From a virus (taxonomy: Duplodnaviria; Heunggongvirae; Uroviricota; Caudoviricetes), in the IMG/VR virus record IMGVR_UViG_2534681831_000033, positions 1 to 11,611 of that record: a DNA stretch of 11,611 bases; one strand, 5' to 3'. A model generated the notes under the pieces. The model made no database searches. It worked only from the letters and a program-made list of their open reading frames with translations, and was not told the origin of the DNA. This document shows positions 1-11,611 of this stretch, piece by piece; the first letter of the stretch is position 1, and every line of letters begins with the position of its first letter. The position numbers and the translations under genes are program-made.

Positions 1-284
1 GAGCCGCACTCGGAGAAGTTGCGTCCATTTTCAGGGGAATGGGGTAAAAACCATCAGTGATATGCAGTATCAATCGATAAGATCCATTTAATTGACGGCG
101 GTGCACTCATGGCACGCAGGCAGTGTTGAATAAACATCCGTTTTTGGGTGTTTTTTTAATCTTTTTGGGATTTAAATTCCTATCGATCAAGAAATGAAAA
201 AAGGCCACGCAGTTGCGCAGCCTGATAAACCCTGGTTAAAATCCACACGATAACAACACAACAATATCAGTATCTCATGCTATT

Positions 285-310
285 GCCCGAACCCATTCGG
301 GCATTTTTTA
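285..310 (+). terminator. Rho-independent terminator-like hairpin: 7-bp stem GCCCGAA / TTCGGGC, 4-nt loop, followed by ATTTTTTA
   Basis: Perfect inverted repeat at 285-291 / 296-302 followed directly by a T-run on the + strand. Confidence 0.5.
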
Positions 311-315
311 CCCAT

Positions 316-339
316 AAAAAAGCCCCTCCGGAGAGGGGC
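316..339 (-). terminator. Rho-independent terminator-like hairpin for leftward transcripts: stem GCCCCTC / GAGGGGC, loop CGGA, then T6 on the - strand
   Basis: Perfect 7-bp inverted repeat at 322-328 / 333-339; the A6 run at 316-321 is a U-tract on the - strand. Sits downstream of all - strand genes in the window. Confidence 0.5.
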
Positions 340-670
340 ATGTTTGCATGCACATTCTTTTTCTTGCATGGTGCCGGGTGCCTCCCGGTGAATTCAGTAT
401 CAGCACCTGAATCCGCGATTATCACATATACCTGGTTGCTGATTGCCCCTCCGCACAGGGGGATTCACCATGCAGTAGTATTTTTAATAAACAGCAAATA
501 AAAAAATCAAGCATTATGCAGGCTGTTTCTTTTTATCACCGGCTACAGCAATACCACAATGCCGCAGACCAGCACCCCATCCGCCAGCACCGACATGATT
601 CTGCTGGTGAAATCCACCATCACCACCAGAAACAGCAGGAGTGCAGCCACAGCCAGGCGCAGTTTTACCG

Positions 671-1011
671 TCACTGGTGATTCTCCAGACGAAGACCCAG
701 AACACCGGCAATCTCTTCCAGCACCTTGCGCTCTTCCGGCTCAATTATTTCTGACGTAAACGCGGACAGCGCAGGCTGATTACGCAGTACCTGTTCGATC
801 TTCGATTTCTAGGAAGCCTCACATTCACCATCTGCACAGGCCACCAGGTAGGCAGCATTAATAACCGCCTGTGCCACATCGCGTTTCTCAAACTTTCCTT
901 TTTCCGGTTAACGTGACACACCAATAACTCTTGTCGAAAAAGCCAGCAAGCTGAAAGACCGGTATTCACCGCCGCCAGCGCGTTTACTGTACTGACGCGA
1001 TTTTCGGACAT
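671..1011 (-). pseudogene. Decayed TerB-like (tellurite-resistance TerB domain) gene; reading switches between three frames and has an in-frame TAG
   Basis: - strand translation gives MSENRVSTVNALAAVNTGLSA in one frame, GFFDK in a second, and KFEKRDVAQAVINAAYLVACADGECEAS*KSKIEQVLRNQPALSAFTSEIIEPEERKVLEEIAGVLGLRLENHQ in a third. The ADG...E pattern resembles TerB from memory. Frame changes fall near A-runs. Confidence 0.45.
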
Positions 1012-1088
1012 AAAAAAAACGCCTGGCGGCAGTTTTTTTCTTACTTTGCCATCGCGTACAAAATAGGCAAAATATCAGATTTATACGA

Positions 1089-1117
1089 AACATACGCGAT
1101 TTAATTGACTTTTGCAA
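1089..1117 (-). promoter_or_regulatory. Sigma70-like promoter (-35 TTGCAA, 17-bp spacer, -10 TATGTT) overlapping the stop codon of the upstream 229-aa gene; a pR'-like position
   Basis: Hexamers read on the - strand: TTGCAA at 1117..1112 and TATGTT at 1094..1089. Followed at 1012-1040 by A7-GC-rich-T8 ending at the next start codon. Confidence 0.3.
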
Positions 1118-1790
1118 TATCTCGTCGTGAAAAGGTCGCTTTTTGTTGCGCTCTTATTTTCACGGAGCAAATCAAGGATTCTCTATCGAGGCGCTTAAAA
1201 ATATCGCACATCTCACGCCAGTAGTTCGCATAATTATGGCTCCAGTTATCAGGCTTAACTCCACACAGTCTGGCAAGCTCCTGTCTCTGGTAGACCTCAC
1301 ACCCGGTAACCCATCCTCTGACATCCTGTGCCGCCAGCCAGATCAACTTCTTCACACGCTCCAGCGTTTTCACTGCAATTTTTCTGGTACCAGACTGAGT
1401 TTTAAATTCATTCCACACCCACTGCGTTATCGCGATCTGATGCTCCCAGCAAATGTTTCCGCCATAACACCACAACAACCACGCCTTCTGATGTTCTTCC
1501 AGTTCCAGAAGGGTACGCCGCCACGATGATGTTGCAAACTCAACAGGACTGACCAGGGCAATTGATGAGCCTTTCGCCAGTGATTGTTTACCCGGGATTG
1601 GGGGATTATCCCGCGTGATCATTTTTCCGGTTACCTCATCGCGGTAACGAATTTTTTTGCGTCTGTAACGCCCTGTATCGAACAGGGCATTTTCCTGCCA
1701 GGCTTCCAGTTGACCTTTTGTCGCCCCACTGAGATCCGCAGTGGCAATCATGAGTTGCTCACGAACAAACTGTAAATACTGGTTATTCAT
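1101..1790 (-). CDS. Phage early/regulatory protein, 229 aa; possibly a phage-82-type Q antiterminator-family protein (assignment uncertain)
   Basis: Long ORF in the track (1101..1796, GTG at 1796). First ATG at 1790 (MNNQYLQF...) is preceded by GAGGTGGGG. Trp-rich, no Walker motifs. Position after the replication genes and before a promoter-like element fits a Q-like role. Confidence 0.5.
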   Translation of the reverse strand: MNNQYLQFVREQLMIATADLSGATKGQLEAWQENALFDTGRYRRKKIRYRDEVTGKMITRDNPPIPGKQSLAKGSSIALVSPVEFATSSWRRTLLELEEHQKAWLLWCYGGNICWEHQIAITQWVWNEFKTQSGTRKIAVKTLERVKKLIWLAAQDVRGWVTGCEVYQRQELARLCGVKPDNWSHNYANYWREMCDIFKRLDRESLICSVKIRAQQKATFSRRDIAKVN

Positions 1791-1874
1791 GCACACCCCA
1801 CCTCTGTAATTTTTATCTCCAGCCGTCCACCAGATACTGGCTTGCCACGTACAATATTGATTTCATCAAACTGC

Positions 1875-2123
1875 TCAAGAGAGTTTTTTGCGGGCATTTT
1901 GCCAGTCCTTTCGTGCCTGTTCAGACGGGAATAACCCGTAGCCGGAGTTGTATACATAACCACTGGCAACCAGCTCTCTGGCAAGAATGCTCATCAGATA
2001 TCTTGTCGCACCTGTTTTAGCTTCCAACTGTCGTAATGTCTCGCGACCGCTCTGGCGCACAAGTTCGACCACCTGCTCTTTAATTTTTTTCCCGCTCTTC
2101 CTGTGTAAAAACTTTTGCCACAA
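1875..2123 (-). CDS. Hypothetical 82-aa protein, possibly a small helix-turn-helix protein
   Basis: ORF track entry with a TTG start at 2123, preceded by a strong AAGGAGG. Sequence has a helical HTH-like segment TLRQLEAKTGATRYLMSILARELV. Confidence 0.4.
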   Translation of the reverse strand: MWQKFLHRKSGKKIKEQVVELVRQSGRETLRQLEAKTGATRYLMSILARELVASGYVYNSGYGLFPSEQARKDWQNARKKLS

Positions 2124-2161
2124 GTCCTCCTTAAAATTACCTCATGACCTGAAATCAACAC

Positions 2162-3127
2162 TTATCCCCTGAAACCAGGCGGAATTTCTGTATCCGGTTC
2201 AGAAATATGATTCACACAACGCTGTACAGGTGAACGTCCCAAGCGGATGACCAGTTCGTCCCATTTTTCGCGGAGTTTTGACGGGCTCATGATGTTTTTT
2301 ACCCAGAATGGATCTCGCTGTACCCGACCAAACATTTCGCAAATTTGTCTGTGGCTTCTGCCATCCAGCATCCGCATTGTGCGCACGTCATTGGCCCAGG
2401 CTGTCCAGTTAGGCTCTTTTGGTCGCATGATCTCTCCATCGTCGCTGGCAGCCTGTTCGTAAAGGTTCACGATCCGCCCCCAAATCCACTGCGCACACGC
2501 CAAATCCTCCCTGCTACCCCACTGGCGTTTTTTCGCACTAAACACAACCGCGTCGGGGTTCCGGATTAAAAAATCCTGTTCAGCGGTCTGCGGGTCCGGT
2601 TGCGAAGCTTCCGGACGAAAAGTGTTTTTATTCTCTGTAGTAATCTCTGTTGTATTCTCTGTAAGATCATCAGGCCATTTTGACCCGATGACATTGGGTC
2701 GTTTTGAACCAATGGAGCGTTTCATTTTGACCTCTTCCATCGTGTCATTTTGACCTGATGGAGCGGCGCATTTTGAACCGATGGATTCGTTCAATTTGCC
2801 ACCATCTAAAAGCTCGTTCCCATAGTTGATCGTGTAGAAATTGGTCATATCGCGCTTTGATTTATTGAGCTTTTCACAACGCAAAAGCCCCAGCGTTTTC
2901 AGACTTGCAAACGCGCGCTTTAACGTTGACTCTGACCAGAATGGGAACTGTTCCAGCCATTGTTCCGTTGTGTTGTAAATCCAGCGAACACCATCACATT
3001 CCATGCCGGAATTGGTATCTCTCAACCAGTAATGCAACTGCTGCAACACAATGGCTTCATTTAAGCCAATCTTCATCGCAAGCTGTGTGTTTATAACCAG
3101 TGGGCGTTCAGCAAAAAGAAGGCTCAT
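2162..3127 (-). CDS. Phage replication initiator (lambda O-like replisome organizer) with an N-terminal DNA-binding domain, an iteron-encoded linker and a C-terminal domain
   Basis: ORF 2162..3181 (TTG at 3181). The first ATG is at 3127 (MSLLFAERPLVINTQLAMKIGLNEAIVLQQLHYWL...). Repeated SIGSK peptide motifs are encoded by DNA iterons at 2676-2806, as in lambda O. Alternative start ATG at 3076. Confidence 0.75.
   Translation of the reverse strand: MSLLFAERPLVINTQLAMKIGLNEAIVLQQLHYWLRDTNSGMECDGVRWIYNTTEQWLEQFPFWSESTLKRAFASLKTLGLLRCEKLNKSKRDMTNFYTINYGNELLDGGKLNESIGSKCAAPSGQNDTMEEVKMKRSIGSKRPNVIGSKWPDDLTENTTEITTENKNTFRPEASQPDPQTAEQDFLIRNPDAVVFSAKKRQWGSREDLACAQWIWGRIVNLYEQAASDDGEIMRPKEPNWTAWANDVRTMRMLDGRSHRQICEMFGRVQRDPFWVKNIMSPSKLREKWDELVIRLGRSPVQRCVNHISEPDTEIPPGFRG
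2676..2806. repeat. Six direct iterons (consensus CATTTTGA(A/C)C-n-GATGG, about 23-bp period) within the initiator gene; putative prophage origin of replication
   Basis: Repeat units start at 2676, 2701, 2723, 2746, 2769 and 2792. Flanked at 2620-2665 by an AT-rich segment with three TCTCTGT(A/T) repeats. Confidence 0.7.
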
Positions 3128-3397
3128 AATTCCATCCAGCTTTTTGTTGGTATTGCTGTCGATACGCAAGTTTGAAAGCAATTGCTTTTTCTATAAGTTC
3201 GTCAGTTTCACGATCCACTACGGCAGGATCAGCAAAAAGCAGTCCGGACTCCACCACATCGCCATATTCTTTGTTTAACCCGGCGATCATGTACGTGATG
3301 CTTTTTCCGTCACTAATTTCACGATACAACCTGAAATCATTAATCCGGATAGCCTCCATAATTGCAGGCACTAGCGCCGTGAACTTTTCACGCTTAT
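3108..3397 (-). pseudogene. C-terminal fragment of a YdaT-family (cII-position) gene separated from its N-terminus by the IS insertion
   Basis: After removing the IS and one TAT copy, the - strand frame from 4942 continues in frame through 3397 to the stop at 3108, giving ...KIFERWKAIDTRD|KREKFTALVPAIMEAIRINDF... (about 173 aa). Confidence 0.6.
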
Positions 3398-3451
3398 TGA
3401 ACCGCCCCGGAAATCCTGGAGACTAAACTCCCTGAGAAAGAGGTAAACAGG

Positions 3452-3778
3452 ATGACTAAAAATACTCGTTTTTCCCCCGAAGTCCGTCAGCGGGCGATTC
3501 GTATGGTTCTGGAAAGTCAGGATGAATATGACTCACAGTGGGCGGCAATTTGTTCCATTGCCCCAAAGATTGGCTGTACGCCGGAGACTCTGCGTGTCTG
3601 GGTTCGCCAGCATGAGCGGGATACCGGGGGCGGTGATGGTGGGCTCACCAGCGCTGAACGTCAGCGTCTGAAAGAGCTGGAACGTGAAAATCGTGAACTG
3701 CGCCGCAGTAACGATATCCTTCGCCAGGCTTCCGCTTATTTTGCGAAGGCGGAGTTCGACCGCCTCTGGAAAAAATGA
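3452..3778 (+). CDS. IS3-family transposase OrfA (HTH DNA-binding subunit)
   Basis: 108-aa [26 protein letters not shown]... ending at the A6 run 3770-3775 where orfB begins in the -1 frame. Confidence 0.85.
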
Positions 3779-4665
3779 TGCCACTGCTGGATAAGCTGCG
3801 TGAGCAGTACGGGGTCGGACCGGTATGCAGCGAACTGCATATTGCCCCGTCAACGTATTACCATTGTCAGCAACAGCGACATCATCCGGATAAACGCAGT
3901 GCCCGTGCGCAGCACGACGACTGGCTGAAGAGAGAGATACAGCGCGTATACGATGAAAATCATCAGGTGTACGGTGTGCGTAAAGTCTGGCGTCAGTTGT
4001 TACGGGAAGGAATCAGGGTGGCCAGATGTACAGTGGCACGTCTCATGGCGGTTATGGGACTTGCCGGTGTTCTCCGGGGTAAAAAGGTCCGTACGACCAT
4101 CAGCCGGAAAGCCGTTGCCGCAGGCGACCGCGTAAACCGTCAGTTCGTGGCAGAACGACCTGACCAGCTGTGGGTGGCTGATTTTACTTACGTCAGCACA
4201 TGGCAGGGCTTCGTCTATGTGGCGTTTATCATTGATGTGTTTGCCGGATACATCGTGGGGTGGCGGGTCTCATCGTCTATGGAAACGACATTCGTGCTGG
4301 ATGCGCTGGAGCAGGCGTTGTGGGCCCGTCGTCCGTCTGGCACCATCCATCACAGCGATAAAGGCTCTCAGTATGTGTCACTGGCCTATACGGAGCGACT
4401 AAAAGAAGCCGGATTACTGGCATCAACAGGGAGTACAGGCGACTCGTATGACAACGCGATGGCTGAGAGCATCAATGGTCTTTACAAAGCGGAGGTAATA
4501 CACCGTAAGAGCTGGAAAAACCGTGCAGAAGTGGAACTGGCCACACTAACGTGGGTGGACTGGTATAACAATCGACGATTGCTGGGAAGGCTGGGCCATA
4601 CTCCTCCGGCAGAAGCAGAAAAAGCTTATTATGCTTCCATCGGAAACGATGATCTGGCAGCCTGA
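3775..4665 (+). CDS. IS3-family transposase OrfB (DDE catalytic domain), normally expressed as an OrfAB fusion by -1 frameshifting
   Basis: 296-aa ORF with an rve-type DDE region (WVADFTYV...HSDKGSQY...DNAMAES). Overlaps orfA in the -1 frame. Confidence 0.85.
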
Positions 4666-4707
4666 GTTCACAGATAAAACACTCTCCAGGAAACCCGGGG
4701 CGGTTCA

Positions 4708-4942
4708 TATCCCTAGTGTCGATAGCCTTCCAGCGTTCGAATATCTTCACTCGATTAACGCCAAGCGCTCGCTGATCAACCGCGCCACCTTCATCTGTGA
4801 CACGCTGAACATCGATGTTCGGGCGCTCTTTCAAAGCCCAGAATGATTCAGTGATTAATATCGTCGCCTGCTCCTGTGTCATTCCTGGTCGACATATCCA
4901 GGCATCCAGAGCCTCACGAGCCTGTTCAGGAGTGATTTTCAT
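4708..4942 (-). pseudogene. N-terminal fragment of the IS-disrupted YdaT-family gene
   Basis: ATG at 4942 (MKITPEQAREALDAWICRPG...). The track ORF 4472..4942 reads through into the IS, so residues after about 78 are IS-derived. Confidence 0.6.
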
Positions 4943-5153
4943 TGTTCAACCGCCCCGCCCGCTTCGTCTTACGATATTCGTCATAAACCTTGGGATCATA
5001 CAGAAGCTCGCCGCCAGATGCCTCCTGTAGACGCATCGCGCGACCTTCAGGAACCAGCTCTTGCCATTGAGAAACAGCAGATGGGTCAACGCCAGCAGCT
5101 TTCGCTACTTTGGCTTTCGTACCGTAAAAATTAATTACGTCTGATTTAAACAT
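4926..5153 (-). CDS. Cro-like small regulator of the DicC/YdaS family
   Basis: Track ORF 4926..5180. The second ATG at 5153 (MFKSDVINFYG...) is preceded by GGAGGTGCG and gives 75 aa. Divergent from the repressor gene. C-terminus PEGRAMRLQEASGGEL...YRKTKRAGRLNNENHS. Confidence 0.75.
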   Translation of the reverse strand: MFKSDVINFYGTKAKVAKAAGVDPSAVSQWQELVPEGRAMRLQEASGGELLYDPKVYDEYRKTKRAGRLNNENHS

Positions 5154-5230
5154 CGCACCTCCAATATTGAGTTTTCTCAAAGCTAATCACTCAAGGAATC
5201 TCAAGTCAAGGGTTATTAAGATATCTAAAT
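5154..5230. promoter_or_regulatory. Divergent promoter/operator region between the Cro-like and repressor genes
   Basis: Inverted repeat TTGAG-TTTT-CTCAA at 5167-5180. Direct CTCAAG / TCAAGG repeats at 5190-5211. A TTGACT hexamer on the - strand. Confidence 0.5.
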
Positions 5231-5638
5231 ATGAACGAGAAAACTTTAGGTCAACGCATTAGAGAAAGACGTAAGCAGGTAGGCTTAAGTCAAAACGGTT
5301 TAAGCAAAGCTGCTGGCGTATCTGGCTCATCAATTTCATTATGGGAAAGTGACCATACAGCCCCGCGTGGGCAAAATTTGCATCGCCTCGCCGAGGTATT
5401 GCAATGTTCACCAACCTGGATACTGTTTGGCGACGAGGACAAAACACCAGCTCCCCCTGTTTCACTCGATAGTGCCTTAGACTTATCGGAAGATGAGTTA
5501 GAGATGCTGCGTTTGTATCGCGCACTTCCTAAATCAGAGCAACAAGCACAACTCAGCGAACTCCGCGCCCGCGTTGAGAATTTTAATCGCCTGTTCACCG
5601 AGCTATTAGAGGCTCGCAAACGCAACAAGCATCAATAA
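5231..5638 (+). CDS. DicA-family HTH (XRE-type) prophage repressor, 135 aa
   Basis: N-terminal HTH (LSQNGLSKAAGVSGSSISLWE). C-terminal LQCSPTWILFGDEDK...ALPKSEQQAQLSELRARVENFNRLF resembles DicA of the K-12 Qin prophage from memory. Confidence 0.85.
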   Translation: MNEKTLGQRIRERRKQVGLSQNGLSKAAGVSGSSISLWESDHTAPRGQNLHRLAEVLQCSPTWILFGDEDKTPAPPVSLDSALDLSEDELEMLRLYRALPKSEQQAQLSELRARVENFNRLFTELLEARKRNKHQ

Positions 5639-5702
5639 TCATCCCTTCACAAAATTTTAAAGCCTTACATTTCAATGTATTGGCTTTATCTTGCGCCAAT
5701 AC

Positions 5703-5754
5703 TTGAGTTTTCTCATCAAAAAACCTTGACGAAAAATAATGAGAAAACTAAATT
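5703..5754 (+). promoter_or_regulatory. Putative repressor-controlled promoter for the downstream operon: operator-like 13-mer plus -35 TTGACG, 17-bp spacer, -10 TAAATT
   Basis: TTGAGTTTTCTCA at 5703-5715 is identical to the 13-mer at 5167-5179. TTGACG at 5726-5731 and TAAATT at 5749-5754. Confidence 0.5.
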
Positions 5755-5830
5755 ACCTCCATCAACACACCGCACGGTGTTCTCAGCAAACAGTTCCGCC
5801 ACCCCGGCGTTAAGGGGAAATGAGGTCAGC

Positions 5831-5983
5831 ATGGATACTATCGATCTTGGCAACAGCGAATCTCTGGTATGTGGCGTGTTCCCCAACCAGGACGGTACGT
5901 TCACCGCGATGACATATACCAAAAGCAAAACGTTTAAAACCGAATCTGGCGCGCGTTGCTGGTTAGCCAGAAACACTGACTGA
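5831..5983 (+). CDS. Small 50-aa protein, ydfA-like (first gene of the dicB-type operon)
   Basis: ATG at 5831 preceded by GAGG (MDTIDLGNSESLVCGVFPNQDGTF...). The track ORF 5675..5983 has a longer, unlikely N-terminus. Confidence 0.65.
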   Translation: MDTIDLGNSESLVCGVFPNQDGTFTAMTYTKSKTFKTESGARCWLARNTD

Positions 5984-5994
5984 TGAGGCTGACG

Positions 5995-6360
5995 ATGGAA
6001 TTTAAAGATTTACCGTCTGATGTACAGAAAACAGCAGCTCATACATTGCATTCTGTGCTGCGAGAAATCGGGAAAGATATTGCAAGCGAGCCAGCAAAAG
6101 ATCTGGCCCGGAAAATCAAGACCGCTTTCGTTGAGCTTTATAATGTTGGCACTGACTCTGAAACTGTCGAGACCAAGACCGTAAGTTCACCAATATTCTC
6201 ACTTGAGCCAGGCGTATTAGCAGGTGAAATGTGCACCGAGATTTCCAGCGAACTGCTTCCGGTAATACGAGAAGCAATTTGCCGTCGCGGTTTGGATGGA
6301 AGTTACGATCATGACGTCCTGCAAGTTCTCAGGACAATGGTGACTTCACTGGGGATTTGA
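5995..6360 (+). CDS. Hypothetical 121-aa protein
   Basis: ATG at 5995 preceded by GAGG (MEFKDLPSDVQK...). The ATG at 5983 overlaps the upstream stop but lacks a ribosome-binding site. Occupies the K-12 ydfB/ydfC position; no recognisable domain. Confidence 0.55.
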   Translation: MEFKDLPSDVQKTAAHTLHSVLREIGKDIASEPAKDLARKIKTAFVELYNVGTDSETVETKTVSSPIFSLEPGVLAGEMCTEISSELLPVIREAICRRGLDGSYDHDVLQVLRTMVTSLGI

Positions 6361-6529
6361 TCCCTGCGTCCTCTAACCTTTTGATATAGCGGTCCTCCAA
6401 GAAGCGGTAAATTTTGTCGAAATCATCTTTCCCCTCTGGTTTATTCAGAGGATTACAGGACCCGTAAGTAGCGGCATACATTTCAACCGTTTTATCAAAA
6501 ATATAAGAGACAAATTCTTCTTTAGTCAT
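6329..6529 (-). CDS. Hypothetical 66-aa acidic protein encoded antisense to the dicB-type operon
   Basis: ATG at 6529 preceded by AAGAAGGAA (MTKEEFVSYIFDKTVEMYAATYG...). AT-rich codon usage. 3' end overlaps the 121-aa gene by 32 bp, convergently. Confidence 0.5.
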   Translation of the reverse strand: MTKEEFVSYIFDKTVEMYAATYGSCNPLNKPEGKDDFDKIYRFLEDRYIKRLEDAGIKSPVKSPLS

Positions 6530-6596
6530 ATAGATTTCCTTCTTGGTTATTCGGAATAAGAAGGATACCACCTCGCCTGACGTGGTTAAAAGCAGG

Positions 6597-6779
6597 CACA
6601 CAACACGAAAGCGCACGGCGAAGTTCGTCTCACTGTACGGTGTCGTTAAATTTAATTCGACCGTGCGCTTCCGGTTGTGGCAACCCGCGAAATGGCGCGG
6701 CGGTAAGTATGGCGGGGTTATTCCTTCCCCGTTGAGGACACCGGGTTGTCAGGTTGACCATACGCTTAAGTGACAACCC
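6597..6779 (+). promoter_or_regulatory. Highly structured untranslated leader upstream of dicF: a long imperfect hairpin (about 6599-6618 with 6661-6680) and a 9-bp stem (6743-6751 with 6771-6779)
   Basis: CACAACACGAAAGCGCACGG pairs with CCGTGCGCTTCCGGTTGTGG. GGGTTGTCA pairs with TGACAACCC. No credible ORF on either strand. Likely processing or structural elements of the DicF precursor. Confidence 0.45.
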
Positions 6780-6804
6780 CGCTGCAACGCCCTCTGTTAT
6801 CAAT

Positions 6805-6862
6805 TTTCTGGTGACGTTTGGCGGTATCAGTTTTACTCCGTGACTGCTCTGCCGCCGTTTTT
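6805..6862 (+). ncRNA. dicF: DicF small RNA (ftsZ-targeting sRNA of Qin-type prophages), including its intrinsic terminator
   Basis: TTTCTGGTGACGTTTGGCGGTATCAGTTTTACTCCGTGACTGCTCUGCCGCC followed by a T-run matches my memory of the 53-nt DicF. Lies between the ydfA-like genes and dicB, as in K-12. Confidence 0.8.
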
Positions 6863-7031
6863 AAAGTGAATTTTGTGATGCGGTGAATGCGGCTAAGCGC
6901 ACGCGGAACAGTTAAAACCAAAAACAGTGTTATGGGTGGATTCTCTGTATCCGGCGTTAATTGTTAACTGGTTAACGTCACCTGGAGGCACCAGGCACTG
7001 CATCACAAAATTCATTGTTGAGGACGCGATA

Positions 7032-7220
7032 ATGAAAACGTTATTACCAAACGTTAATACGTCTGAAGGTTGTTTTGAAATTGGTGTCACTATCAGTAAC
7101 CCTGTATTTACTGAAGATGCCATTAACAAGAGAAAACAAGAACGGGAGCTATTAAATAAAATATGCATTGTTTCAATGCTGGCTCGTTTACGTCTGATGC
7201 CAAAAGGATGTGCACAATGA
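7032..7220 (+). CDS. dicB: DicB cell-division inhibitor (62 aa)
   Basis: ATG at 7032 preceded by GAGGA. MKTLLPNVNTSEGCFEIGVTISNPVFTEDAINKRKQERELLNKICIVSMLARLRLMPKGCAQ matches my memory of DicB. The track ORF 6927..7220 has an extended N-terminus. Confidence 0.85.
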   Translation: MKTLLPNVNTSEGCFEIGVTISNPVFTEDAINKRKQERELLNKICIVSMLARLRLMPKGCAQ

Positions 7221-7408
7221 ATTCAGCATTTGCGCTTGTTCTGACAGTTTTTCTTGTTTCCGGAGAGCCAGTTGATATTGCAGTCAGTGTTCACAGGACA
7301 ATGCAGGAGTGTATGACTGCAGCAACCGAACAGAAAATTCCCGGTAACTGTTACCCGGTCGATAAAGTTATTCACCAGGATAATATCGAAATCCCGGCAG
7401 GTCTTTAA
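7217..7408 (+). CDS. ydfD: YdfD-like small membrane/lysis protein (63 aa)
   Basis: ATG at 7217 overlaps the dicB stop (ATGA). MNSAFALVLTVFLVSGEPVDIAVSV... has a hydrophobic N-terminus. Synteny dicB-ydfD. Confidence 0.75.
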   Translation: MNSAFALVLTVFLVSGEPVDIAVSVHRTMQECMTAATEQKIPGNCYPVDKVIHQDNIEIPAGL

Positions 7409-7501
7409 AACAGTTCCGTAATAAATATCCGGTTTCATTCTTATATGCCAGCAATGGCAGGGATTTGTTCATCCTTAAATCTGTCATGAGGTTAAAACAA
7501 A

Positions 7502-9484
7502 ATGAGTAAAGTCTTTATTTGCGCCGCTATTCCTGACGAACTGGCAACAAGGGAAGAAGGCGCTGTGGCTGTAGCCACAGCCATTGAAGCTGGCGACGAA
7601 CGCCGTGCTCGAGCAAAATTTCACTGGCAGTTCCTGGAACATTATCCGGCTGCTCAGGACTGCGCTTATAAATTTATTGTCTGCGAGGATAAACCTGGCA
7701 TACCCCGCCCTGCCCTCGATTCATGGGATGCTGAATATATGCAGGAAAACCGCTGGGATGAGGAATCCGCTTCCTTTATTCCGGTCGAACCAGAATCCGA
7801 TCCGATGAACGTCAATTTTGACAAGCTGTCCCTTGAAGTACAGAACGCGGTCCTGGTTAAGTTCGGTACATGTGAAAACATCACCGTTGATATGGCGATT
7901 GACGCGCAGGAATTACTGCAGGAAGACGTTGCTACCTTTGACGGGCATATCGTTGAAGCACTGATGAAAACGCCTGAAATTAACGCTATGTATCCGGAAC
8001 GCAAACTGTTCGCTATCGGATGGGTTAAACACAAATGTAATCCGGGTGCCAAATGGCCCGAAATTCAGGCTGAATTACGTAACTGGAAAAAACGGCAGGA
8101 CGCAGAGCGCAAAGAGACTGGAAAATACACGTCTGTTGTTGATCTCGCCAGCGCCAGAGTCAATCAACAGCACACTGAAAACTCAGCAGGAAAAATCAAC
8201 CCAGTCACTGCCGCCATTTGTCGCGAATACAAGCAGACATGGAAAACGCTGGATGAAGAACTGGCCTACGCTCTCTGGCCTGGTGATGTGGATGCCGGAA
8301 ACATTGACGGCAGCATCCATCGCTGGGCAAAAAATGAAGTTATCGACAACGACCGCGAAGACTGGAAGCGTATCTCGGCATCAATGCGCAAACAGCCTGA
8401 TGCCCTTCGCTACGACCGCCAGACTATTTTTGGCCTTGTCCGTGAACGTCCGATCGACATTCACAAAGACCCTGTGGCACTGAACAAATACATTACTGAA
8501 TACCTGACTACAAAGGGCGTGTTTGAGAATGAAGAAACAGACCTGGGCACTGTTGATGTTCTCCAGTCATCAGAAACACAAACTGATGCAGTGGAAACTG
8601 AGGTATCTGATATCCCAAAAAATGAAACCGCGCCGGAAGCTGAACCATCTGTAGAGCGTGAGGGGCCGTTCTATTTCCTCTTCGCAGATAAGGACGGAGA
8701 AAAATACGGTCGCGCAAACAAACTTTCTGGTCTGGATAAGGCACTGGCTGCTGGCGCCACTGAAATCACAAAAGAAGAATATTTTGCCCGAAAAAATGGC
8801 ACATACACGGGCTTACCGCAAAATGTAGATACCGCTGAAGATTCAGAACAACCAGAGCCGATAAAAGTTACCGCTGACGAAGTAAACAAAATTATGCAGG
8901 CAGCCAATATCAGCCAGCCTGACGCCGATAAGTTGCTTGCTGCATCACGTGGTGAATTTGTTGAAGGGATTAGTGACCCGAATGATCCGAAATGGGTAAA
9001 GGGGATTGAAACCCGCGATTCTGTAAACCAGAACCAGCAAGAATCGGAACAGAACGACCAGAAAGCGGAACAAAACAGCCCAAATACGCAACAAAACGAG
9101 CCAGAAACGAAACAACCTGAGCCAGTAGCGCAACAGGAACCGGAAAAAGTCTGCACCGCCTGCGGTCAGACCGGCGGCGGCAACTGCCCTGATTGTGGCG
9201 CGGTGATGGGCGACGCAACATATCAAGAAACATTCGATGAAGAATATCAGGTTGAAGTTCAGGAAGATGATCCGGAGGAAATGGAAGGCGCTGAACATCC
9301 ACACAAGGAGAACACTGGCGGCAATCAGCATCACAATAGCGATAATGAAACTGGCGAGACGGCAGATCACTCAATTAAGGTGAACGGTCATCAAGAAATC
9401 ACATCCACCAGCAGGACGTGTGACCATCTAATGATCGACCTTGAAACCATGGGAAAAATCCTGATGCCCCGATCATCTCAATAG
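7502..9484 (+). CDS. Large acidic protein (660 aa) in the ydfE/RecE-N-terminal-like position, with a C-x2-C-x7-C-x2-C zinc-ribbon motif; its C-terminus carries the Exo I motif (MIDLETMG) of a DEDDh exonuclease domain and then terminates after a frame change
   Basis: ATG at 7502 preceded by GAGG. Long ORF with acidic and Q/N-rich low-complexity segments. The last 25 residues begin a DnaQ-like exonuclease domain that continues in the -1 frame in ORF 9517..9972. Confidence 0.7.
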   Translation: MSKVFICAAIPDELATREEGAVAVATAIEAGDERRARAKFHWQFLEHYPAAQDCAYKFIVCEDKPGIPRPALDSWDAEYMQENRWDEESASFIPVEPESDPMNVNFDKLSLEVQNAVLVKFGTCENITVDMAIDAQELLQEDVATFDGHIVEALMKTPEINAMYPERKLFAIGWVKHKCNPGAKWPEIQAELRNWKKRQDAERKETGKYTSVVDLASARVNQQHTENSAGKINPVTAAICREYKQTWKTLDEELAYALWPGDVDAGNIDGSIHRWAKNEVIDNDREDWKRISASMRKQPDALRYDRQTIFGLVRERPIDIHKDPVALNKYITEYLTTKGVFENEETDLGTVDVLQSSETQTDAVETEVSDIPKNETAPEAEPSVEREGPFYFLFADKDGEKYGRANKLSGLDKALAAGATEITKEEYFARKNGTYTGLPQNVDTAEDSEQPEPIKVTADEVNKIMQAANISQPDADKLLAASRGEFVEGISDPNDPKWVKGIETRDSVNQNQQESEQNDQKAEQNSPNTQQNEPETKQPEPVAQQEPEKVCTACGQTGGGNCPDCGAVMGDATYQETFDEEYQVEVQEDDPEEMEGAEHPHKENTGGNQHHNSDNETGETADHSIKVNGHQEITSTSRTCDHLMIDLETMGKILMPRSSQ

Positions 9485-9516
9485 GTGCAATATTTTTCGA
9501 TCCGCAAACCGGAGAT

Positions 9517-9972
9517 ATGGGACCGGAATTTAGTAAGACTATCGATCTGGAAACTGCTGGCGGAGTCATTGATCGGAACACCATTAAATGGTGGCTTAAG
9601 CAATCACGCGAAGCGCAATCTGCCATTATGACCGATGAAATCCCGTTAGATGATGCACTGTTACAATTGCGGGAATTTATCGACGAAAACTCCGGTGAAT
9701 TTTTTGTTCAGGTTTGGGGAAATGGAGCCAACTTCGACAACACGATTTTGCGCCGTTCATACGAACGGCAGGGGATCCCCTGCCCGTGGCGTTACTACAA
9801 CGATCGCGATGTACGCACAATCGTTGAGCTGGGGAAAGCCATAGACTTCGATGCCAGAACGGCTATTCCATTCGAAGGTGAGCGCCATAATGCACTTGAT
9901 GACGCCCGTTACCAGGCAAAATACGTTTCAGTTATCTGGCAAAAACTGATCCCGAGTCAGGCTGATTCTTAA
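9517..9972 (+). CDS. DEDDh (DnaQ-like) 3'-5' exonuclease domain fragment with Exo II and Exo III motifs; out-of-frame continuation of the preceding gene
   Basis: Motifs WGNGANFDNTIL and HNALDDARY. The -1 frame is open from 9455 (KNPDAPIISIGAIFFDPQTGD-MGPEF...), joining to ...MIDLETMG. GGAGAT precedes the ATG at 9517. Confidence 0.55.
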   Translation: MGPEFSKTIDLETAGGVIDRNTIKWWLKQSREAQSAIMTDEIPLDDALLQLREFIDENSGEFFVQVWGNGANFDNTILRRSYERQGIPCPWRYYNDRDVRTIVELGKAIDFDARTAIPFEGERHNALDDARYQAKYVSVIWQKLIPSQADS

Positions 9973-9983
9973 TGTTCAACTGT

Positions 9984-10018
9984 CGCCGGTTGTGACTGGT
10001 ATTCTGCAACCGGCGCTC
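9984..10018 (+). promoter_or_regulatory. Perfect 9-bp inverted repeat (CGCCGGTTG / CAACCGGCG) with a 17-nt loop between the exonuclease gene and xis
   Basis: Seen directly in the sequence. No following U-tract, so more likely a protein-binding site or RNA structure than an intrinsic terminator. Confidence 0.3.
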
Positions 10019-10044
10019 GTCTGATGTAAGAGATAAAGAAATCG

Positions 10045-10296
10045 ATGAGCGAAGTAATCATGATTGTCTCTCCCGGCAAATGGGTATCCGAAGAGCAGTT
10101 AATTGCGCTGAAAGGAATAAAAAAAGGTACGTTAAAAAAGGCCCGGGAAAAATCGTTTATGGAAGGAAGGGAATATAAGCATGTCGCTCATGACGGTATG
10201 CCATGGGATAACAGTCCATGCTTTTACAACCTGGAAGAAATTGATCGCTGGATTGAGCGCCAGGCATCAGCGAGACCAAGACGTCATCTTACTTGA
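10045..10296 (+). CDS. Phage excisionase-like protein (83 aa) immediately upstream of the integrase
   Basis: Small basic ORF (MSEVIMIVSPGKWVSEEQLIALKGIKKGTLKKAR...) in the canonical xis-int arrangement. Start uncertain; ATG at 10060 is an alternative. Confidence 0.65.
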   Translation: MSEVIMIVSPGKWVSEEQLIALKGIKKGTLKKAREKSFMEGREYKHVAHDGMPWDNSPCFYNLEEIDRWIERQASARPRRHLT

Positions 10297-10330
10297 CTAA
10301 AAGCCACACTAACTAATGAGAGAAGTTGAA

Positions 10331-11611
10331 ATGAAATATCCGACAGGCGTGGAAAACCATGGAGGGAAATTACGTATCTGGTTTGTTTATAAAGGCGTAA
10401 GAGTCAGGGAAAATCTGGGGGTTCCTGACACAGCAAAAAACAGGCGCGTTGCAGGTGAACTACGCTCCTCTGTTTGTTACGCAATAAAAACTGGTGTTTT
10501 CGACTATGCAAAACAGTTTCCCTCCTCACGCAATCTGGAAAAATTTGGTGAGGCCCGACAAGATTTAACCATAAAAGAACTGGCTGAAAAATTTCTGGCA
10601 CTGAAAGAAAATGAAGTCGCCAAAACATCACTCAACACATACCGTGCCGTCATCAAAAATATCCTGAGCATAATCGGTGAAAAAAATCTTGCCTCATCGA
10701 TTAATAAAGAAAAATTACTGGAGGTTCGTAAAGAGCTACTGACTGGATACCAGATCCCCAAAAGTAACTATATTGTTACACAACCAGGGAGATCGGCTGT
10801 AACTGTAAATAATTACATGACAAATCTTAACGCCGTGTTCCAGTTTGGTGTTGATAACGGTTACCTGGCAGATAATCCGTTTAAGGGGATCTCGCCATTA
10901 AAGGAATCAAGAACCATTCCGGATCCTCTTTCGCGGGAGGAATTTATCCGTCTTATCGATGCGTGCAGAAATCAGCAAGCAAAAAATTTATGGTGTGTTT
11001 CTGTTTATACTGGCGTTCGCCCTGGTGAGCTGTGTGCACTTGGATGGGAGGACATAGATCTGAAAAATGGAACAATGATGATCAGGAGAAATTTAGCAAA
11101 AGACCGTTTCACGGTACCAAAAACACAGGCGGGAACCAATCGGGTCATTCATCTTATTAAGCCAGCAATCGACGCTCTCCGGAGTCAGATGACATTAACG
11201 AGACTGAGTAAAGAGCATATCATTGATGTTCACCTCAAAGAGTATGGCAGAACAGAAAAACAAAAATGCACCTTTGTTTTTCAACCTGAAGTGTCAGCGA
11301 GAGTAAAAAATTATGGTGACCATTTTACCGTTGACTCAATAAGGCAGATGTGGGACGCAGCGATAAAACGTGCCGGACTCCGCCATCGAAAATCATATCA
11401 GTCGAGACATACTTATGCCTGCTGGTCGCTGACAGCTGGTGCTAACCCGGCATTTATAGCAAACCAGATGGGCCATGCAGATGCGCAAATGGTATTTCAG
11501 GTATACGGAAAATGGATGTCTGAAAACAATAATGCACAGGTAGCTTTGTTAAATACACAGTTAAGCGAGTTTGCCCCAACCATGCCCCATAACGAAGCAA
11601 TAAAAAATTAA
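10331..11611 (+). CDS. Phage tyrosine integrase (lambda-type site-specific recombinase); stop codon at the last bases of the window
   Basis: Track ORF 10316..11611. The ATG at 10331 (MKYPTGVENHGGKLRIWF...) is preceded by GAGAGAAG. C-terminal catalytic region has R...H-x-x-R...Y-type residues (RHTYACWSLTAG, GHADAQMVFQVYGKW). Confidence 0.85.
   Translation: MKYPTGVENHGGKLRIWFVYKGVRVRENLGVPDTAKNRRVAGELRSSVCYAIKTGVFDYAKQFPSSRNLEKFGEARQDLTIKELAEKFLALKENEVAKTSLNTYRAVIKNILSIIGEKNLASSINKEKLLEVRKELLTGYQIPKSNYIVTQPGRSAVTVNNYMTNLNAVFQFGVDNGYLADNPFKGISPLKESRTIPDPLSREEFIRLIDACRNQQAKNLWCVSVYTGVRPGELCALGWEDIDLKNGTMMIRRNLAKDRFTVPKTQAGTNRVIHLIKPAIDALRSQMTLTRLSKEHIIDVHLKEYGRTEKQKCTFVFQPEVSARVKNYGDHFTVDSIRQMWDAAIKRAGLRHRKSYQSRHTYACWSLTAGANPAFIANQMGHADAQMVFQVYGKWMSENNNAQVALLNTQLSEFAPTMPHNEAIKN

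Follow-up and report, generated by a model that had tools for sequence, protein, structure and literature searches.

The immunity regions of phages lambda and P22 hold exclusion genes that are expressed in the lysogen, namely rexAB and sieB in lambda and sieB/esc in P22. The embedding of an antisense accessory gene in a prophage operon is also a known kind of arrangement. For instance, in the Staphylococcus aureus phage 80alpha the Tha/Ith system consists of a defence gene and a small, overlapping antisense gene for its inhibitor, and has been described as a 'noncontiguous operon' (PMC11087260). In the case of the ionophoric colicins, the immunity genes lie on the opposite strand and have their own promoter (PMC9517006), and the moron concept describes small accessory genes in prophages (PMC3594210). 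Here we describe a convergent gene pair in a window of 11,611 nucleotides (the whole stretch of DNA analysed, positions 1 to 11,611 of the IMG/VR virus record IMGVR_UViG_2534681831_000033), which is a Qin/dicBF-type lambdoid prophage of Escherichia coli. The pair, an open reading frame (ORF) of 121 amino acids (aa) on the + strand and a 66-aa gene on the - strand, lies within the dicBF operon, a studied case of toxic cryptic-prophage genes under layered control. Comparison of related sequences indicates that the pair contains a portable two-gene cassette, made up of the 66-aa gene and the C-terminal ~45 codons of the 121-aa ORF (the C-module). In lambdoid prophages of the DicA and CI types, this cassette occupies a variable slot of the early operon that the repressor controls.

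Like Tha/Ith, the pair is found in a prophage beside the lysogeny switch, and its small antisense gene overlaps the operon and has a (putative) promoter of its own. In Tha/Ith, the products are mutually exclusive, such that the accessory function is coupled to the choice between lysogeny and lysis, and the antisense product inhibits its partner. The polarity of the two systems differs, in that the cI-tha operon is lysogenic and ith prevails in lysis, whereas here the operon is lytic and repressed and the antisense gene would prevail in lysogeny. Moreover, Tha is a large HEPN RNase, whereas the products considered here are predicted hairpins of ~45-66 aa with no sequence or fold similarity to the staphylococcal proteins, and the hosts belong to different phyla. 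Neither a HEPN domain nor any other was found with Pfam in either protein, and the likeness is one of antisense-overlap architecture only.

The pore-forming colicins resemble the locus in having an operon under repressor control that codes for a protein of variable C-terminus and has lysis or killing genes at its end, between which lies a small opposite-strand gene with its own promoter (putative in the window), and in that the C-terminus and the antisense gene change together. However, immunity to these colicins is provided by integral membrane proteins, and the 66-aa protein is instead predicted to be soluble; the colicin operons are plasmid-borne and LexA-controlled, rather than prophage-borne and under DicA or CI, and without sequence similarity to the pair, and the C-module has no known toxicity. 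With morons and exclusion genes, the 66-aa gene shares a small size, presence/absence polymorphism, a lower GC content (40.8% against 47.3% for the window) and a position beside a repressor; a promoter of its own, and the production of an effector and a self-protection product from one locus, as in sieB/esc, would be further likenesses. In contrast to these genes, it is antisense to the operon, overlaps its partner, and has no homology to Rex, SieB or the PADLOC models. The terminator expected of a moron was not found either: a scan of both strands from 5600 to 7100 gave no intrinsic terminator-like site, and the 3' end of the gene falls inside the partner ORF.

The closest positional counterpart is ydfB-ydfC of the K-12 Qin prophage (PMC5069750), which occupies exactly the same interval between ydfA and dicF and likewise encodes small proteins with no assigned function. 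Unlike the pair, ydfB and ydfC are both on the + strand, their sequences are unrelated to it, and K-12 lacks the antisense promoter block described below. Four features appear to be undescribed, namely the proteins themselves, the polarity, the swap slot with its shared promoter, and the cassettes of matched C-terminus and antisense gene.

Organization of the gene pair

The pair and its parts are arranged as follows.

5995-6360, + strand: 121-aa ORF, between ydfA and dicF
5995-6150, + strand: N-module of the 121-aa ORF, codons 1-52, a predicted helical hairpin and part of the operon backbone
6151-6222, + strand: linker of the 121-aa ORF, codons 53-76, predicted to be disordered, nearly neutral
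6223-6360, + strand: C-module, codons 77-121 plus the stop codon, two short predicted helices
6329-6529, - strand: 66-aa gene, for a predicted helical-hairpin protein with a flexible tail
6329-6360: 3' overlap of 32 bp, coding on both strands
6536-6541, - strand: Shine-Dalgarno sequence AAGGAA of the 66-aa gene, 6 nucleotides (nt) 5' of the ATG (direct reading)
6562-6598, - strand: putative antisense promoter block TGCCTGCTTTTAACCACGTCAGGCGAGGTGGTATCCT, conserved, the right joint of the cassette

The original prediction, made from the letters of the window, had recorded the two ORFs and their 32-bp overlap at these same positions, together with a strong ribosome-binding site (RBS) for the - strand gene, which is indeed present at 6541-6536 and whose purine-rich GGA core is preserved in all lineages. 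The description of the gene as AT-rich is correct only to a mild degree, as its GC content (above) indicates, and the protein is likewise only mildly acidic, with an isoelectric point of 5.3 and a net charge of -1.5. Over the interval 5600-7300, the window matches strains 95NR1 and 95JB1 at 100% identity and E. coli O111:H- 11128 at 99.9%. Both ORFs are annotated in RefSeq as 'hypothetical protein' (WP_001344637 and WP_000159335) in O111:H- 11128 and in ~390 other complete genomes, and a literature search by both protein accessions and by ECs_2282 found no paper.

The 121-aa protein matches phrog_33007 over its full length (1.4e-81), as does the 66-aa protein phrog_34441 (1.5e-50), and both families carry the label 'unknown function'. 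The claim that neither product has a recognisable domain is thus accurate for Pfam, NCBIfam, PADLOC and the Protein Data Bank (PDB), if not for PHROG. Neither protein had a match with a function in Pfam or NCBIfam, no family of PADLOC-DB v2 was found for either at E-values up to 0.1, and a sequence search of the PDB, for which the 66-aa family and the C-module each served as a profile, returned nothing below an E-value of ~0.2. In the AlphaFold2 (AF2) model of the 66-aa protein, two helices (residues 3-22 and 31-54) are followed by a flexible tail, with a predicted local distance difference test score (pLDDT) of 81, and the protein is hydrophilic (grand average of hydropathicity -0.68). The best Foldseek hit of this model in the PDB had an E-value of 6.4, and nothing more specific than helical hairpins of a generic kind, Rop and EncB among them, was retrieved. 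The profile and structure-prediction searches that had been proposed for the pair yield PHROG families and predicted helical hairpins, with no function-bearing match, and no toxin-antitoxin, defence or anti-defence model in PADLOC, Pfam or NCBIfam was matched.

Several candidate identities were rejected. Zn_ribbon_16 (PF21957) scored 14.3 bits against the 66-aa protein, with a cut-off of 27 (E = 0.04), and the lone cysteine of the protein is not conserved, which does not fit a zinc ribbon. A histone match, the only other hit of the Pfam, NCBIfam and PADLOC scans, was also set aside. Nor does the pair have the form of a type II toxin-antitoxin system: the genes are convergent rather than co-directional, and no toxin or antitoxin family was found in Pfam, NCBIfam or PADLOC.

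Protein-level selection on both strands

The pattern of substitution shows that both ORFs are real coding sequences, with ratios of nonsynonymous to synonymous substitution rates (dN/dS) of ~0.1-0.3 in frame and ~1 out of frame. For the 66-aa gene, the in-frame dN/dS (Nei-Gojobori) is 0.11 between the window and Cedecea, and 0.24-0.28 between the window and contigs L004 and L007. Over the final 45 codons of the 121-aa ORF, the in-frame proportions of nonsynonymous (pN) and synonymous (pS) differences between the window and Cedecea are 0.21 and 0.72-0.86, respectively; ratios in other frames are ~1-1.8, and those of the two other frames across the C-module codons are 1.3-1.8.

Homologues of the 66-aa protein in the other lineages are 54-73% identical and keep its length and motifs. 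The family is tiny: a word-indexed search found 19 clusters, and when 1.84 billion proteins were searched exhaustively with HMMER only 11 representatives emerged, one of which, a eukaryotic WD40 repeat protein, was discarded as spurious. A remote 73-aa homologue (P0044) in L014 converges on and overlaps a 63-aa ORF of an early operon. Within the group of sequences designated class A, the 66-aa gene is intact in 27 of the 29 distinct haplotypes that also have the N-module gene.

These data bear on whether the 66-aa ORF could be an unexpressed chance antisense ORF, with the + strand operon alone being real. The small size of the ORF, its family without known function, and a promoter that falls below the threshold of a consensus scan would all be expected of such an ORF; nevertheless, the dN/dS of 0.11-0.28 across three deep lineages, the retention of length and motifs down to 54% identity and in the remote 73-aa relative, the intact state of the gene in class-A haplotypes, and the conserved RBS and upstream motif leave this account with almost no credibility, and the substitution pattern effectively refutes it. 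The pair was originally put forward with the proviso that the 66-aa ORF might prove to be non-conserved; instead, purifying selection acts in its reading frame.

The same evidence makes it very improbable that the locus is a type I toxin-antitoxin system with convergent, 3'-overlapping transcripts, in which one strand would be an antisense RNA only. Such pairs are known from Bacillus prophages, for instance txpA/RatA and bsrG/SR4, and the convergent geometry, 3' overlap and prophage location of the pair are in keeping with them. However, purifying selection is frame-specific on both strands, which argues that both are protein-coding, neither product is a small hydrophobic membrane peptide, both being hydrophilic and predicted to form soluble hairpins, and no Rfam match was found in 5900-6800 at E-values up to 1.

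The 121-aa ORF is a mosaic

The original prediction had treated the two whole ORFs as a unit. Both genes do belong to the unit, but for the 121-aa ORF this extends only to the C-terminal ~45 aa, and the ORF is a mosaic of which only the tail goes with the 66-aa gene. Residues 1-52 match phrog_9419, phrog_1363, phrog_2151 and phrog_6937, as well as proteins P0038-P0041, whose C-termini are unrelated. The N-module is a separate and older module that is also joined to at least four other C-termini, and it belongs to the backbone rather than to the cassette. A scan of genome contigs for the N-module returned only 4 loci. In the AF2 model, it forms helices at residues 8-25 and 32-53 (pLDDT ~75), followed by a linker (residues 52-84) with a pLDDT below 50 and a pN/pS of ~0.55-0.9. 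The cassettes of L011 and L012 break at the linker, placing the left recombination joint within or just 5' of it.

In L004 and L007, the 66-aa homologue has a 129-aa ORF as its partner, of which the C-module (residues ~77-121) is the sole conserved part, fused there to a different N-terminus; the C-module is also found in Enterobacter, and as a standalone ORF in Cedecea, with its own AGGAGA RBS and ATG codon. These arrangements, together with the substitution pattern, point to the C-module as the true partner of the 66-aa gene. A word-indexed search with the C-module profile gave no matches. An internal start at Met79 of the 121-aa ORF was ruled out, with isoleucine present at this position in most alleles. 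The pattern of truncations was also considered as a guide to which protein might be a toxin, and was abandoned since there are only single cases in either direction.

A portable cassette in several prophage settings

The functional unit is smaller than originally proposed: it joins the 66-aa gene to the final ~45 codons of the 121-aa ORF and to a conserved, putative promoter of the extended -10 type (TGGTATCCT, 6562-6570). Four sequence lineages carry this ~400-bp cassette, in three genomic settings, of which one is a rightward cro-cII operon and two are without dicF/dicB.

E. coli (the window) and phage mEp460_ev081: pair between ydfA and dicF
Enterobacter prophages L011 and L013: pair in an early-left operon, immediately 3' of an S24 CI repressor, with no dicF/dicB
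L004 and L007: pair in an early-left operon, behind a different S24 repressor
Cedecea L005 and L006: pair between cro and a cII-like gene, in a rightward operon

The dicB-type context noted for the window is therefore genuine but not specific, as the pair is also found behind S24 CI repressors without dicF/dicB and between cro and cII in Cedecea. The orientation is the same in every setting, with the C-module in sense and the 66-aa gene in antisense to the repressed early operon. In all four lineages, the 66-aa gene ends exactly 26 nt from the '...SLG' codons, and the overlap is essentially invariant in class A (1 substitution in four comparisons). Of the IMG/VR contigs in which a class-A 121-aa ORF has enough flanking sequence, 56 of 59 have the 66-aa gene intact, and one more has a 64-aa version. 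One carrier, mEp460_ev081, has been described as a temperate phage that is functional (PMC10448788).

In line with its first description as small prophage cargo, the pair has the behaviour of cargo that is exchanged horizontally, in a slot of the early-left operon whose content varies. The cassette is found in 390 of 5426 complete E. coli genomes, whereas its flanks are found in more than 2000; it replaces ydfB/ydfC of K-12, and L011 and L012 differ by the cassette alone. In a comparison of the E. coli type with L203, pS is 0.67 for the N-module and 0.12-0.26 for the C-module and 66-aa gene, showing that the cassette is younger than the backbone and that its horizontal transfer was recent.

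A shared, putative antisense promoter block

The promoter-like element ahead of the 66-aa gene, of the sigma-70 kind, consists of a -35 hexamer, TTAACC (6589-6584), a 16-nt spacer, and an extended -10 element, TGgTATCCT (6570-6562). The element had been placed at about 6540-6580, which its -35 hexamer just exceeds, and it is conserved with the gene: the core GGTG(G/A)TA(T/C)CCTT, 31-38 nt 5' of the ATG, is invariant in the window, Cedecea, and L004 and L007 despite saturated synonymous sites. An inverted repeat, GCCTG-N13-CAGGC (6575-6597), flanks the -35 hexamer; its arms are retained in the diverged copies in L138, L142 and L203, with a 4-bp version in L004, and it could represent either an operator or an RNA hairpin of the + strand transcript. 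A hairpin in the 5' untranslated region sequestering the RBS was considered and dropped, as transcription would be expected to start at its 5' arm or downstream of it.

The block is not restricted to the cassette. From 37 nt (6562-6598) to 60 nt (6561-6620) of it are 100% identical in many of ~1700 further complete E. coli genomes, in which the query matched through its promoter-proximal part alone and the cassette is missing. At least 38% of the complete genomes of E. coli contain the block. It lies 5' of at least four unrelated antisense genes, including the following.

L009 2267-2467, EDL933: ECs_2282-family zinc-binding protein, behind the block
L010 2000-2455, ETEC4069: 151-aa zinc-ribbon protein, behind the block
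L008 2147-2467, - strand, 13C1079T: 106-aa membrane ORF, unannotated, behind the block
L138 2916-3134: 72-aa antisense ORF, behind a diverged copy of the block

Among 124 IMG/VR contigs with the exact 33-nt core, the cargo is the membrane ORF in 55-59, the zinc-binding protein in 36 and the 66-aa gene in 28. Identity between cargo classes is lost 1-2 nt beyond the -10 element; the presence of the same block ahead of unrelated antisense cargo, with identity ending at this point, indicates a swap slot. The ydfA-dicF interval is thus to be seen as a slot marked by an antisense promoter block, rather than as a fixed ydfB-ydfC pair.

The commonest cargo, the 106-aa ORF, has approximately three hydrophobic segments, no RefSeq annotation in 13C1079T, and no Pfam or PHROG match, and on its opposite strand a truncated ydfB reads through. 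In EDL933 (L009 1365-1836), the N-module gene and ydfA are missing upstream of the antisense cargo, and a type II toxin-antitoxin pair of the relB/relE type stands in their place.

Operon context and probable read-through

A DicA-type repressor and a Cro-like DicC divergent from a ydfA/dicF/dicB/ydfD operon are the marks of a dicBF-type operon, and all are found in the window, in a region that can be aligned with K-12 Qin using MAFFT.

4926-5180, - strand: Cro-like gene (P22_Cro by Pfam; DicC-type)
5231-5638, + strand: dicA-like helix-turn-helix repressor gene, which controls the early-left operon (Pfam HTH_3, 2e-15; RefSeq)
5726-5754, + strand: promoter-like site TTGACG-17-TAAATT in the dicBp position, upstream of ydfA (consensus scan only)
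5831-5983, + strand: ydfA (DUF1391), gene 1 of the operon (Pfam DUF1391, 4e-27)
6806-6857, + strand: DicF small RNA (Rfam RF00039, 72.5 bits)
7032-7220, + strand: dicB (RefSeq on identical sequence; Pfam DUF1482, dicB/ydfD region)
7217-7408, + strand: ydfD (RefSeq on identical sequence), which like dicB is a host-toxic early gene

The setting in a repressor-controlled dicB-type operon is thus borne out by Pfam, Rfam, RefSeq and the K-12 Qin alignment. In K-12, DicA is the repressor of dicBp (PMC10448788), and the promoter-like site at 5726-5754 aligns with the K-12 region 5' of ydfA. Within the operon, the 66-aa gene lies on the opposite strand, with ydfA and the 121-aa ORF upstream and dicF, dicB and ydfD downstream all on the + strand, which is the gene layout of a noncontiguous operon or excludon-type arrangement. 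Given this gene order, the 66-aa gene is antisense to the transcript needed for both dicF and dicB, as had been predicted, and the DicF precursor must read across it. Such read-through of the operon is suggested by the absence of a terminator and by the processing of K-12 DicF out of a polycistronic transcript (PMC5069750). That convergent transcription could tune the output of DicF and DicB is plausible from the geometry and from the lack of a terminator between the genes, and the antisense promoter may set this output differently in pathogenic lineages such as O111 as compared with K-12.

Taken further, this leads to the alternative that the element acts mainly in cis, with convergent transcription from the antisense promoter damping leaky or induced read-through into the toxic dicF/dicB/ydfD genes and the 66-aa protein being of secondary importance. 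Such a role would explain why the block is conserved whatever the cargo; with no terminator found, the antisense transcript would head towards dicBp, a promoter that fires spontaneously in a subpopulation and whose products are toxic (PMC10448788; PMC5069750). However, protein-level purifying selection on the 66-aa ORF is clear, a good RBS is found in all lineages, the cassette also occurs where dicF/dicB are absent downstream, and K-12 Qin manages without such a promoter, making a mainly cis-acting role improbable.

A possible switch coupled to the lysogeny decision

The explanation that best accommodates these observations, which we hold tentatively and at somewhat less than an even chance, is that the 66-aa protein is produced in lysogens and the C-module upon derepression, that convergent transcription makes the two exclusive, and that the two hairpins are a cognate pair of effector and neutraliser. 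From the conserved motif, the geometry and the co-inheritance of the genes we infer promoter activity, mutual exclusion, binding of the two proteins and a phenotype. In the lysogen, the operon would be silenced by the repressor, leaving the antisense promoter free to fire, such that the 66-aa protein alone would be made, and its unterminated transcript would oppose leaky early transcription. Upon derepression, strong transcription of the operon would cross and occlude the antisense promoter, and the operon RNA, being fully complementary to the 66-aa mRNA, would pair with it while the C-module protein is made. The latter might then bind leftover 66-aa protein, hairpin on hairpin in the fashion of a four-helix bundle, and the pair would thereby serve as an effector and neutraliser coupled to the lysogeny-lysis switch. 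The precedents of Tha/Ith and of the ionophoric colicin immunity genes make such a design credible.

As for which protein is which, we slightly favour the 66-aa protein as a factor acting in the lysogen, for instance in exclusion or host modulation, with the C-module as its off-switch, since cargo without a partner occupies the same promoter slot. Alternatively, the C-module may be a Kil-like early toxic peptide and the 66-aa protein its standing antidote, a possibility raised by the covariation of C-termini with antisense genes and by the toxicity of the neighbours dicF, dicB, ydfD and KilR.

A number of observations weigh against an effector and neutraliser pair. The promoter element agrees with the consensus at 8 of 12 positions and is not flagged by a simple consensus scan, and the conservation of the block in E. 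coli could partly reflect a role as a homologous recombination joint. The C-module is modelled by AF2 as two short helices of low confidence (pLDDT ~50), and at short range it is nearly neutral, with pN ~ pS in one comparison based on small counts. In Cedecea, the stop codon after '...SLG' has been lost, creating a 109-aa ORF (L005 3568-3897, - strand) that spans the whole antisense of the 66-aa gene and is either a decaying copy or a longer product. The 63-aa partner in L014 has no detectable homology to the C-module profile (hhalign probability 0.2), and the other cargo behind the shared promoter, namely the 106-aa membrane ORF and the ECs_2282-type protein, has no matched partner. Furthermore, neither protein matches a known defence, toxin or antitoxin model, and physical overlap alone would enforce co-inheritance without a functional link.

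Four of these points, namely the near-neutrality of the C-module at short range, the missing homology in L014, the unpaired cargo and the obligatory, essentially invariant overlap, are those expected if the two are functionally unrelated accessory genes that travel together only through their 3' overlap, as a recombination event separating them would destroy both; the 66-aa gene would then be a lysogen moron, and the C-module the tail of an early protein. Several findings weigh against this alternative, including the minimal two-gene cassette at the wholly different Cedecea site, with a start codon and RBS belonging to the C-module itself, the purifying selection on the C-module over deep divergence, and the recurrence in four lineages and three settings of the same sense/antisense relation to a repressed operon. 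In addition, four other extensions of the N-module each have a different convergent, overlapping antisense ORF. Mere co-travel is thus unlikely, although it is the alternative to which we give the most weight.

If the pair is indeed an effector and its neutraliser, it would represent the counterpart, in Gram-negative bacteria and with inverted polarity, of the noncontiguous operon of Tha/Ith. The culturable phage mEp460_ev081, which carries the pair, would then provide a compact ~400-bp system for studying how an accessory function is switched off at prophage induction.

Other possibly matched cassettes

The N-module gene also occurs with four other C-terminal extensions, each followed by a different convergent, 3'-overlapping antisense ORF of 72-81 aa, and in L206 it occurs alone.

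L012 4239-4469: antisense ORF of 76 aa, 131-nt overlap
L136 2769-3014 and L205 (Serratia): antisense ORF of 81 aa, 26-nt overlap
L138 2916-3134: antisense ORF of 72 aa, 77-nt overlap, with KilR next
L204 2865-3104: antisense ORF of 79 aa, 29-nt overlap

None of the proteins of these four pairs has a known function. Their arrangement suggests that the N-module extensions and convergent antisense ORFs are a family of matched cassettes. A more ambitious reading, which we regard as rather unlikely, is that of a polymorphic cassette system immediately behind the repressor in DicA- and CI-type lambdoid prophages of enterobacteria, in which a conserved hairpin N-terminus carries swappable C-modules, each matched to a small convergent, overlapping antisense protein gene that is served by a shared conserved promoter, as lysogeny-coupled pairs of effector and neutraliser. 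In such a system, of equally doubtful standing, the pairs would combine exclusion with immunity of the phage to itself, or else a toxin of the Kil type with an antidote that is always at hand, and the window would display one of at least five cassettes.

Other features of the prophage

The prophage is decaying while the small gene pair remains intact. The 'exonuclease' region (7502-9972) is a single ORF of 823 codons in O111:H- 11128, and is split here into ORFs of 660 aa and 151 aa, the latter carrying the Rv2179c-like exoribonuclease domain. An insertion of the IS3 family is found at 3452-4665, in which an HTH_Tnp_1 ORF and an rve transposase ORF are accompanied by an ALIL frameshift pseudoknot at 3733-3849. 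The insertion adjoins the Cro-like gene and has left a chimeric 156-aa ORF at 4472-4942 (- strand). In O111:H- 11128, the region matching the insertion site holds pseudogene remnants, one of which is a partial ydaT-like gene.

At the left end of the window, the anti-small RNA AgvB (248-309, + strand) adjoins STnc100 (310-499, - strand). Both are strong Rfam matches and are typical of lambdoid prophages of the enterohaemorrhagic E. coli type. Lastly, two contigs labelled as Veillonella parvula (L140) and as a Geobacteraceae metagenome-assembled genome (L142) contain an enterobacterial prophage segment, at 100% and 85% identity, respectively, and their host labels most likely result from binning error.

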